Assembly: GCF_003334405.1 (NCBI RefSeq)
Contig: NZ_QOWM01000003.1
From: Escherichia coli
GTDB lineage: Bacteria; Pseudomonadota; Gammaproteobacteria; Enterobacterales; Enterobacteriaceae
Length of the DNA stretch: 64,000 bases
Reading direction: 5' to 3' (one strand)
Shown here: positions 2,008 through 63,448 of the stretch, one piece after another
How positions within the stretch are numbered: the first letter of the stretch is position 1
Layout of the letters: the number at the start of each line of letters is the position of its first letter
Position numbers and translations under genes: made by a program
The notes under the pieces: generated by a model
Database searches by the model: none
What the model saw: the letters and a program-made list of their open reading frames with translations, nothing else
What the model was told of the DNA's origin: nothing

Positions 2008-3461
<1,454 letters not shown>

Positions 3462-3471
3462 GGATGCGACT

Positions 3472-4116
3472 ATGATGCAACCATCAATCAAACCTGCTGA
3501 CGAGCATTCAGCTGGCGATATCATTGCGCGCATCGGCAGCCTGACGCGTATGCTGCGCGACAGTTTGCGGGAACTGGGGCTGGATCAGGCCATTGCCGAA
3601 GCGGCGGAAGCCATCCCCGATGCGCGCGATCGTTTGTACTATGTTGTGCAGATGACCGCCCAGGCTGCGGAGCGGGCGCTGAACAGTGTTGAGGCGTCAC
3701 AACCGCATCAGGATCAAATGGAGAAATCAGCAAAAGCGTTAACCCAACGTTGGGATGACTGGTTTGCCGATCCGATTGACCTTGCCGACGCCCGTGAACT
3801 GGTAACAGATACACGACAATTTCTGGCAGATGTACCCGCGCATACCAGCTTTACTAACGCGCAACTGCTGGAAATCATGATGGCGCAGGATTTTCAGGAT
3901 CTCACCGGGCAGGTCATTAAGCGGATGATGGATGTCATTCAGGAGATCGAACGCCAGTTGCTGATGGTGCTGTTGGAAAACATCCCGGAACAGGAGTCGC
4001 GTCCAAAACGTGAAAACCAGAGTTTGCTTAATGGACCTCAGGTCGATACCAGCAAAGCCGGTGTGGTAGCCAGTCAGGATCAGGTGGACGATTTGTTGGA
4101 TAGTCTTGGATTTTGA
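3472..4116 (+). CDS. cheZ: CheY-P phosphatase CheZ (214 aa)
   Basis: ORF 3442..4116 contains [22 protein letters not shown]; start placed at the internal ATG at 3472 to give the expected 214 aa. Confidence 0.92.
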
Positions 4117-4124
4117 TTTGTATT

Positions 4125-4187
4125 GCCTGATGTGGCGTGACCACGTCATATCAGGCGGTCTGATAAGGCGATGACGCCGCATCCGAC
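4125..4187. repeat. REP-type extragenic palindromes (imperfect hairpin plus GCCGCATCCGAC-type REP)
   Basis: gcctgatgtggcgtgaccacgtcatatcaggc hairpin followed by gataaggcgatgacgccgcatccgac in the cheZ-flhB intergenic region. Confidence 0.6.
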
Positions 4188-4317
4188 AAACGCACACTAT
4201 GCTTGATGTGTGGCAGCAAAAGCCCTAAATCCCGCCTGTTTTGCCCCTTACTCAAACCATTGAACGCTTTGCGCTCTGGCATCATTCACGCTTAATACTC
4301 TTTCCAGGATTGGCGAC

Positions 4318-18295: not shown

Positions 18296-19114
18296 TCAGA
18301 AAAGAGAAGATTGCTGTGGAATAGCCGGAACTGCTCCGATCTCTGGAAGCGTTTTACGTAAGTCTTCCCACAGGGTATGTACCAGTTCCGGTGCCTGGGC
18401 AATGTCTGGCGTATGTAAAAAAAGATAAGGCGTAGTGGTCTGATGCCACTGCGCTAATTTTTGTAACCAGACCTGAAATAATTCCCGGTTTTGCGTCATA
18501 TCATCACTACCGATAAAACGGATCAGCGGATTTGTCGCCGTCAGTACAGCATGTACCGGAACTTTAGGTTTTTTTCGTTGAGCGTCGCGAATAGCTTCAC
18601 TGTGTGGACGTGCTGCATGAACCGGGCGGCTGTCTAAAATCACCCGATTAACGCCGCGCTGATGTAAACCGCGATTAAGCGTTTGTTCCTCTTCTCCTTT
18701 GGCGAAAAACTGTGGATGGCGGACTTCCACGCCATAATTAAATTCGCCAGGAAGAGAATCGAGAAAATGCCAAAGCGCAGGCAGCTCCCGTGGGCCGAAT
18801 GTGGCAGGCAGTTGCAGCCAGTATTGCCCAATGCGCGGAGCCAACGGTGACATGCGGGTCAAAAATTCAGTCACTAAATCATCGCAATGCCGTAATGCTG
18901 CCTGATGCGAAATGGTCGCCGGAAACTTAAAACAGAAGCGGAAGTCATCTGTGGTCTGCTCACGCCAGCGCAGGACAACCTCGGGTTTCGGCAGGGCGTA
19001 AAGCGTGGTGTTGCCCTCCACGCAGTTAAAGTGGCGGGCATACTCTTCAAGGCTGGTGATCCCCAACCGCACCCATTTAGGATGCGACCATTGCGGTAGA
19101 CCGATGTAAATCAT
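18296..19114 (-). CDS. yecE: DUF72-family protein YecE (272 aa)
   Basis: 272-aa [32 protein letters not shown]. Confidence 0.88.
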
Positions 19115-23655: not shown

Positions 23656-24357
23656 TTATACCGCCTCGGTCAGTTCCGGCTGAGGCGTTTCCACTCCCTC
23701 CGCATGAATCAACACCAAACCCGGATGATGCCACAAACTGGCTGGCGTGACGGTTTTACGCTCCCACGGAATAGAACCCAGGAACCAGAATTTCCAGAAA
23801 GTGAGTTTTGCATTCGGATTGCTATTTAACAATTCTCCAAACGTCTCTATTTCACCCACCGGAATACATAGCGCTTCTTTATAAATATCAAAAACAAATT
23901 TTGAACAGAACTGGCGCGAAGATTCGTATTTAAAACCGGTGTGGTAAAGTTTGCGTAGCCGGGAGGGAACCTGTTCAACAATTCGTTGTTTTTGTCGTTC
24001 TGTCAGCCCAGCGTCTAATCGCTTTATAGCATAGCGTTGATTAGACGAACGTTTAATAAAACGAGATAGCGTGGTGATGGTTGAAAGGGGAACCCGGCTT
24101 TCTGCAACCAGGAAGTCTTCACCGTTATGACCGATAATGATCCCGACGTGATTACTCCAGCAATTTGATGCAGCTGATATTTGACCAAATAAGGCAGCAC
24201 CTATACATGTAAAGACGATATCTCCAATTTCATATTCAGCAGGGTAATTAATATTCACGTTGTCATTCCATTGAAATAGATACAAATATACGTAATAGCA
24301 TAAAAAATTTATTTTTTCAGGAGGCGCAATGTATATTTTTATTACGCATTTCTTCAC
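23656..24357 (-). CDS. yebB: YebB (YiiX/permuted papain-like family hypothetical protein); start codon uncertain
   Basis: 233-aa ORF convergent with ruvC and divergent from ruvA; true start may be internal. Confidence 0.7.
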
Positions 24358-24465
24358 TGAATATGTAATATTAAAATATTTGCTTCCAATATAACCTGTA
24401 GAATAAATTATACTGTGCCATTTTTCAGTTCATCGAGACACCTCGCAAGTTTTCTTCATCCTTCG

Positions 24466-61886: not shown

Positions 61887-61960
61887 TATCATTTTTTCAG
61901 CACTAGATTTTCTTCCTCTCCAGCAGTGGTAGAATAGCGCCTCTACTCAGAGGTGGTGAA

Positions 61961-62248
61961 ATGAACGAAGTTGTAAATTCAGGCGTGATGAACATTGCGT
62001 CTTTGGTTGTATCGGTGGTGGTTCTTCTTATCGGGCTCATCTTGTGGTTTTTTATCAATCGTGCCAGTTCACGGACTAACGAACAGATTGAACTGCTTGA
62101 GGCGTTGCTGGATCAGCAAAAACGTCAAAATGCACTGTTACGTCGTTTGTGCGAAGCAAACGAACCAGAGAAAGCAGATAAAAAGACCGTTGAGAGTCAA
62201 AAATCGGTTGAAGACGAAGATATTATTCGTCTGGTCGCCGAACGATAA
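61961..62248 (+). CDS. yebO: Small membrane protein YebO (95 aa)
   Basis: 95-aa ORF MNEVVNSGVMNIASLVVSVVVLLIGLILWFFINRASS. Confidence 0.85.
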   Translation: MNEVVNSGVMNIASLVVSVVVLLIGLILWFFINRASSRTNEQIELLEALLDQQKRQNALLRRLCEANEPEKADKKTVESQKSVEDEDIIRLVAER

Positions 62249-62917
62249 TCCTTCCTCAATCTTGAGTAACCCCGTCGTTGAAGGGTTACTCAATTCATCC
62301 TGATTATACGCACTGTCATGGTGCAACTGCTTCAAATTAAAACTCTGGTCTGACTTCAAATAATTATCATATTATTTATTTGCGTAACGGGATATCAGAA
62401 AAAGATATTTACCCCATTAATTTATTAGGATGTTTACATCGGATTTGTGATTAAGCGTGGTATTATTTATTAGCGAAACGTTTCTCTCTTGATTTTTTTG
62501 CTCATTCATCAATTTTTCTTATTTTAAATTTACAATCCCTTTGGGGATTGACTTCTCTTTAGGGTAATTAATAGCCGTTAACTGACTGTTTTATGAGAAA
62601 AAGTGATATAACTTTTTATTCATTGCATAGCAAAAAATGTGATATTGCACGCACTATGTAATAACTTCTCCCACTGGCCTGGAACAACTGAACTTATTGA
62701 ACTATGTTAGAAAATACGCCAGTTTAAGTATCTGCCTGAACTGGCAAGGTTAAGCACAATGATATATCGGCGCGTATTCCGTTGCATAAGTGTGCAAAAA
62801 AAGTGGAAGACGTATCGAGATTTGTGCGTCTGATCGAGACATGTTTAAAAATGGCTTGCCATAATTAACGTTGTATGTGATAACAGATTTCGGGTTAAAC
62901 GAGGTACAGTTCTGTTT

Positions 62918-63061
62918 ATGTGTGGCATTTTCAGTAAAGAAGTCCTGAGTAAACACGTTGACGTTGAATACCGCTTCTCTGCCGAGCCTTATATTGGTGC
63001 CTCATGCAGTAATGTGTCAGTTTTATCTATGTTATGCCTGCGGGCGAAGAAAACAATCTAA
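62918..63061 (+). CDS. yobF: Small protein YobF (47 aa), co-transcribed with cspC; not in the ORF track
   Basis: Manual translation from ATG 62918: [47 protein letters not shown] then TAA, 12 nt upstream of cspC. Confidence 0.85.
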
Positions 63062-63073
63062 GGAATTTTTCAA

Positions 63074-63283
63074 ATGGCAAAGATTAAAGGTCAGGTTAAG
63101 TGGTTCAACGAGTCTAAAGGTTTTGGCTTCATTACTCCGGCTGATGGCAGCAAAGATGTGTTCGTACACTTCTCCGCTATCCAGGGTAATGGCTTCAAAA
63201 CTCTGGCTGAAGGTCAGAACGTTGAGTTCGAAATTCAGGACGGCCAGAAAGGTCCGGCAGCTGTTAACGTAACAGCTATCTGA
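63074..63283 (+). CDS. cspC: Cold-shock-domain protein CspC (69 aa)
   Basis: 69-aa [72 protein letters not shown]. Confidence 0.97.
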
Positions 63284-63328
63284 TCGAATCCACTGATCTG
63301 AAGTGTGAATACGCTTCAATCTCGCTAT

Positions 63329-63355
63329 AAAGCCTCGTCGAATGCGAGGCTTTTT
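63329..63355 (+). terminator. Intrinsic terminator after cspC
   Basis: aaagcctcg-tcgaatg-cgaggc followed by ttttt. Confidence 0.75.
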
Positions 63356-63448
63356 ACTATGCTTTATCTTCGCTCCTGGCGTTCGGATATTTGCCCGCCG
63401 CGTGATTCGCGTTACACTTGCGGCCTTTAGTATCCTGCCGGAGTTGTC

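Follow-up and report, generated by a model that had tools for sequence, protein, structure and literature searches.

A 22-codon frame in the yebO-yobF spacer of Escherichia coli is very probably a chance open reading frame overlapping a conserved non-coding motif

A 22-codon frame located upstream of the yobF-cspC operon of Escherichia coli is, with high confidence, a chance open reading frame (ORF) in an AT-rich non-coding spacer, and neither a gene nor yobI. The DNA under the frame is promoter-distal upstream DNA of the yobF-cspC operon, and the few constrained bases within it belong to a short non-coding motif located, in many Enterobacteriaceae, at approximately −300 from the yobF start codon and recurring at −134. 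This outcome removes a false lead, namely the mistaken identification of the frame as yobI, and leaves a frame without the hallmarks of coding sequence. The value of the region lies in the surroundings of the frame, a spacer of approximately 670 nt with islands that are conserved across the Enterobacteriaceae, including a palindrome resembling the operator of RbsR. CspC is a stress and RpoS regulator, and adaptive mutations arise repeatedly at its locus.

The frame was analyzed in a 64,000-nt stretch of E. coli DNA, hereafter referred to as the window, and positions are those of the window unless K-12 is named (Table 1). Reading and translation of the sequence gave the same start codon, the same 22 sense codons, and the same TAA stop codon as the preliminary description, and the AT-rich intergenic setting upstream of yobF-cspC that it had reported was likewise found. 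The spacer, which is bounded by yebO and yobF with cspC next in order, is 669 nt long and has a GC content of 35%; the stop codon of the ORF and the start of yobF are 256 nt apart. The spacer sequence is that of K-12, in reversed orientation relative to MG1655, and K-12 coordinates were obtained by subtracting the window position from 1970509. This conversion was verified with the reported cspC transcript end (K-12 1907153), which falls at position 63356, on the cspC terminator.

Table 1. Coordinates of the candidate ORF and of the features discussed in the text (window positions except where K-12 is named)
Feature	Position	Strand	Basis or remarks
yobI (b4677), 21 aa, with an AGGAGG Shine-Dalgarno sequence upstream	24329..24394	+	K-12 1946115..1946180; NF038179 match
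yebO	61961..62248	+	Upstream neighbor of the spacer
LacI-family operator-like palindrome TTAGCGAAACGTTTCTCTCT	62470..62489		Match to the K-12 rbsD operator TCAGCGAAACGTTTCGCTGA
Candidate ORF, 22 codons	62593..62661	+	MRKSDITFYSLHSKKCDIARTM; TAA at 62659..62661; judged a chance ORF
Candidate ORF in K-12 MG1655	1907848..1907916 (K-12)	-	Coordinate conversion
Inverted repeat AAAAAGT-N6-ACTTTTT (K-12 sequence)	62598..62617		Self-match; fold prediction
Conserved non-coding island under ORF codons 9 to 18	62618..62646		Distal motif copy, A-run, GTGATA
Proximal motif copy GCATAAGTGTGCA	62784..62796		Fixed at −134 from the yobF ATG
Main yobF-cspC promoter	62856..62892	+	−35 TTGCCA (62856-61), 17-nt spacer, extended −10 TGtGATAAC (62876-84), start G at 62892
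yobF (62918..63061) and cspC (63074..63283)	62918..63283	+	Operon downstream of the spacer

The preliminary description had suggested that the frame might be a small protein annotated in this neighborhood in K-12, possibly yobI, and nothing else speaks for such an identification. The suggestion proved to be wrong. The true yobI is located between ruvA and yebB, 38 kb from the candidate ORF, and its product scores 59.3 bits against the NCBIfam equivalog model NF038179 (stress_YobI; cutoff of 33). In a profile search with E values up to 10, the candidate peptide matched 0 families, stress_YobI included, and BLASTP returned no alignment between the peptide and YobI. The likeness between the two consists of their lengths (21 versus 22 aa), the shared 64-kb neighborhood, and the shared strand of the window. 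YobI is hydrophobic, is encoded in the ruvA-yebB spacer behind an AGGAGG Shine-Dalgarno (SD) sequence, and matches its own family model, whereas the candidate is hydrophilic and basic, lacks an SD sequence, and matches nothing. The K-12 record NC_000913.3 contains no feature of any kind, and hence no coding sequence, between yebO (b1825) and yobF (b1824), contrary to the suggestion of an annotated small protein at this site. Annotated features under the ORF were likewise absent (0) from two spread samples of 40 and 60 RefSeq E. coli records, drawn from more than 5,400 complete E. coli genomes in which the stretch occurs, and neither the candidate peptide nor its K14R variant was found among approximately 15 billion predicted proteins. 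With locus, profile search, BLASTP, and the annotation of NC_000913.3 all speaking against it, the candidate has a negligible probability of being yobI or any other small protein of the K-12 annotation.

The length of the frame is within the range expected by chance. When the spacer was shuffled with its dinucleotide composition preserved, the + strand carried an average of 2.4 ORFs that begin with ATG and have 22 codons or more, and at least one such ORF was present on this strand in 95% of the shuffles; the real spacer contains 2 on the + strand and five over both strands. The candidate ORF represents no excess over chance. No stretch of 4 nt or longer within the 20 nt preceding its ATG (AGCCGTTAACTGACTGTTTT) matches the SD core TAAGGAGGT, whereas matches of 4 to 6 nt are present upstream of yobF, cspC, yebO, mgrB, and yobI. 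Initiation without an SD sequence is known in E. coli in RNA that is AT-rich and unstructured. At the candidate ORF, an inverted repeat (AAAAAGT-N6-ACTTTTT) is predicted to form a weak hairpin, in which the bases immediately following the AUG would be paired in RNA, and relatives within Escherichia vary in both of its arms. No unusual RNA stability was detected at the ORF segment compared to shuffles (z = −0.24 and −0.72 on the two strands), and a structured RNA at the ORF was rejected on these scores for either strand. An Rfam scan with E values up to 10 identified no RNA family over the ORF; its only match, to the cspA thermoregulator model, covers yobF-cspC.

Within E. coli, an 86-nt stretch surrounding the ORF has an identity of 95% or more in every one of 5,414 matching genomes except one, and the frame was intact in 10/10 sequence variants that were read, among which the only changes were a synonymous AGC→AGT and the substitution K14R (AAA→AGA or AGG). 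Because the whole spacer is equally identical within the species (95 to 100%), this intactness says little about the frame. For the comparison across species, 80 species-representative loci were fetched via YebO, a set outside of which E. fergusonii and Shigella fall, and the gene order yebO, spacer, yobF, cspC was maintained across the Enterobacteriaceae in these loci. The frame itself is broken in three Escherichia species, the nearest lineages outside E. coli: two lineages (L003 and L005) have a TAA at codon 3 in addition to a 1-nt deletion, and in E. albertii the ATG is replaced by ATA, again with a 1-nt deletion in the frame. A megablast search of 5,426 E. coli genomes with the L005-type sequence returned no match, and the broken frames therefore belong to other species.

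Conservation biased toward synonymous changes, whose absence the preliminary description had named as part of the evidence against a coding frame, was not seen: the substitutions in the three non-coli Escherichia lineages are distributed evenly over codon positions 1/2/3 (6/5/4, 6/4/4, and 3/7/6). Identity to the three lineages is 75 to 78% over the ORF, 74 to 78% over the spacer, and 93 to 98% over the 98 nt adjoining yobF, and in the alignment of 76 species, the three ATG bases are individually kept in only roughly 10 to 30%. A chance ORF, which the preliminary description had offered as the alternative, is supported: no SD sequence precedes the frame, ORFs of this length are expected by chance, the frame is not conserved beyond E. 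coli, annotation is lacking, and the mapped yobF-cspC start site lies downstream. The candidate resembles the spurious ORFs of AT-rich intergenic regions in its chance-range length, its lack of an SD sequence, the loss of the frame in sister species, and the lack of third-position bias; the sole distinction from this class is its overlap with a conserved non-coding motif.

The spacer also carries insertion sequences in laboratory strains. In one assembly of E. coli C600 (NZ_CM181231.1), an IS5 element interrupts the ORF at the equivalent of positions 62629 and 62630, approximately 265 nt before the start site of yobF-cspC, and a W3110-derived record (NZ_CP165600.1) contains IS1 elsewhere in the same spacer. 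The presence of IS5 within the ORF shows that laboratory strains can do without the frame. Both insertions are consistent with the reported status of yobF-cspC as a hot spot of insertion-sequence mutation in aging colonies (PMC13162491).

Transcription start sites and transcript units were taken from published SMRT-Cappable-seq tables, in which the yobF-cspC operon extends from K-12 1907617 (position 62892) to K-12 1907153 and a read-through yebO-yobF-cspC unit extends from the yebO start at K-12 1908567 (position 61942) (PMC6131387). No start sites with the K-12 prefixes 19077 to 19079 are present in these tables. The −35 and −10 hexamers of the main yobF-cspC promoter were read from the sequence, and the block that contains this promoter (62820 to 62917) is nearly invariant across 76 Enterobacteriaceae species. 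Since the main start site is downstream of the candidate ORF, by 231 to 299 nt, the ORF is present in sense only on read-through transcripts from yebO, and the yebO-yobF-cspC unit accounts for the only recorded RNAs of this kind. These transcripts being on record, mRNA carrying the ORF is made. No terminator-like structure was found between the ORF and yobF (62661 to 62918), and the design of an attenuator is therefore not present.

Several further observations concern the transcription of the locus. Between yebO and the candidate ORF, the window contains a terminator-like hairpin, CAATCCCTTTGGGGATTG (62533 to 62550), followed by ACTTCTCTTT (up to 62560); it is present in E. coli, is not alignable in other Escherichia species, and may limit read-through from yebO. 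The Rfam cspA thermoregulator model spans 62898 to 63358 (135.5 bits) and begins 6 nt after the start site at 62892. Its 5′-UTR portion aligns with the coding sequence of yobF, so that, within the cspC mRNA, yobF takes up the part equivalent to the long leader of cspA; the 5′ UTR mapped for yobF itself measures only 26 nt. In published genomic-SELEX data, RNA polymerase holoenzymes, among them that of RpoN, give peaks within the yobF/yebO spacer, and RpoN-dependent repression of yobF-cspC under nitrogen depletion is reported (PMC8743547). By coordinate conversion, the RpoN peak (K-12 old coordinate 1,905,652) corresponds to position ∼62881, on the proximal sigma-70 promoter and off the ORF.

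Two explanations that would make the frame a translated one were weighed against a chance ORF. The frame could encode an E. coli-specific, recently arisen micro-protein (a proto-gene) with low, SD-less translation from the yebO read-through transcripts. Its intactness in every E. coli variant read and the near-identity of the 86-nt stretch across the matching genomes, with one exception, speak for such a gene, but the spacer as a whole is just as identical in the species. The recorded read-through transcripts do cover the ORF, although the terminator-like hairpin at 62533 to 62550 lies upstream of it, and the AT-rich start region that might favor initiation has no SD sequence. Given in addition that the frame is broken in sister species, that the insertion of IS5 is tolerated in C600, that annotation is lacking, and that the peptide has never been called, a micro-protein is unlikely. 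More doubtful still, to the point of being very improbable, is a regulatory upstream ORF, i.e., a leader peptide whose translation controls the expression of yobF-cspC. The main start site at 62892 places the ORF outside the 5′ UTR of the principal mRNA, even though the ORF is located upstream of the operon on the same strand. Post-transcriptional control of yobF on heat shock has been reported (Hemm et al. 2010, as cited in PMC11429745) and would suit a leader peptide, but the 256 nt from the ORF stop to the yobF start contain no terminator- or attenuator-like structure, and the frame is not conserved whereas the operon and its promoter are nearly invariant. An attenuator-type upstream ORF was rejected on the downstream position of the start site, the lack of a terminator-like site, and the lack of unusual folding.

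The validated 47-aa protein YobF, encoded 256 nt downstream, offers a direct comparison, as it too is encoded by a short same-strand ORF that precedes cspC. yobF has a GAGGT SD sequence and is located on the mapped primary transcript, and the candidate has neither. The amino acid identity of YobF is approximately 60 to 94% in most of the 80 Enterobacteriaceae loci, conservation that is not seen for the candidate. A start-codon-dependent phenotype has been published for YobF (PMC11429745), and there is none for the candidate.

The few constrained bases inside the frame belong to a non-coding GCATAAnTnTGCA-type motif that is conserved across genera. The profile of 76 species consists of short conserved islands separated by variable, indel-rich sequence, a pattern of protein-binding sites rather than of coding sequence. 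The island under ORF codons 9 to 18 reads TTatGCATAAcTaTGCAcAAAA in most genera and is degenerate in E. coli, where the distal motif copy (62618 to 62633) reads TCATTGCATAGCA. Allowing at most one mismatch, the 13-nt motif GCATAAnTnT[GT]CA was found at approximately −300 from the yobF ATG in 40/76 species and at exactly −134 in 56/76 species. An upstream motif is thus located at a fixed distance from yobF across genera, between flanks that are variable and contain indels. We infer that the conserved motif is a protein-binding site or a promoter element. Comparison with consensus sequences gave no convincing fit of the GCATAA motif to NsrR, ArgR, MarA, Fis, IHF, DnaA, OxyR, or PhoB. Alternatively, the island at 62618..62646 could be taken for a weak promoter (ATTCAT-17-TGtGATATT), with no start reported there. 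A literature search found no paper tying the islands of the spacer to CspC regulation.

Two other conserved non-coding islands were observed in the spacer. The island at 62505 to 62533 (GTCAT..TTTCATTATTTTGGTGCA) takes a Pho-box-like form in Citrobacter and Salmonella (TTGTCAT-CATT-CTTTCAT) and is weaker in E. coli. The island at 62679 to 62716 (CTGGA..GAA..TTGAGCTATGGTA.AAAAG) could be a −35/−10 pair, CTGGAA-18-TATGTT, at which no start site is reported. A sigma-54 promoter in the CTGGAA block was rejected in a by-eye comparison, as the −24/−12 spacing does not fit.

The palindrome at 62470..62489, approximately 420 nt upstream of the yobF-cspC start site, agrees with the rbsD operator at 16/20 positions overall and at 15/16 core positions. 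It recurs, with no more than 3 mismatches of 16, in 58/76 Enterobacteriaceae species, and its core CGAAACGTTT is kept in at least 90%. On this resemblance, the palindrome is possibly an RbsR or PurR-type site; PurR is a paralogue of RbsR. A broader reading, which we put forward tentatively and consider rather improbable, is that the DNA of the ORF might belong to an undescribed, family-wide yobF-cspC control region, composed of the two GCATAAnTnTGCA elements (approximately −300 and −134) and, further upstream, the near-perfect RbsR-type operator AGCGAAACGTTTCTCT. Salmonella mutants without RbsR and those without CspC share the ability to grow on succinate, and RbsR raises RpoS through an unexplained indirect route in this species (PMC10965054). 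If RbsR or PurR acts at the palindrome, this could supply an indirect link from RbsR to the RpoS-dependent phenotypes in Salmonella. A literature search found no paper linking RbsR to yobF-cspC, and the connection is a lead, not a result.

The spacer has also received additional genetic material in part of the family. In Enterobacter, Lelliottia, Kosakonia, and relatives (approximately 30 loci), an inserted gene separates yebO from yobF; in the single such locus that was read, from Enterobacter mori (L034, positions 3309 to 4304 of that locus), the inserted ORF encodes 331 aa and resembles the metallo-beta-lactamase fold by eye. The loci with an inserted gene retain approximately 525 nt before yobF, with the same conserved islands.
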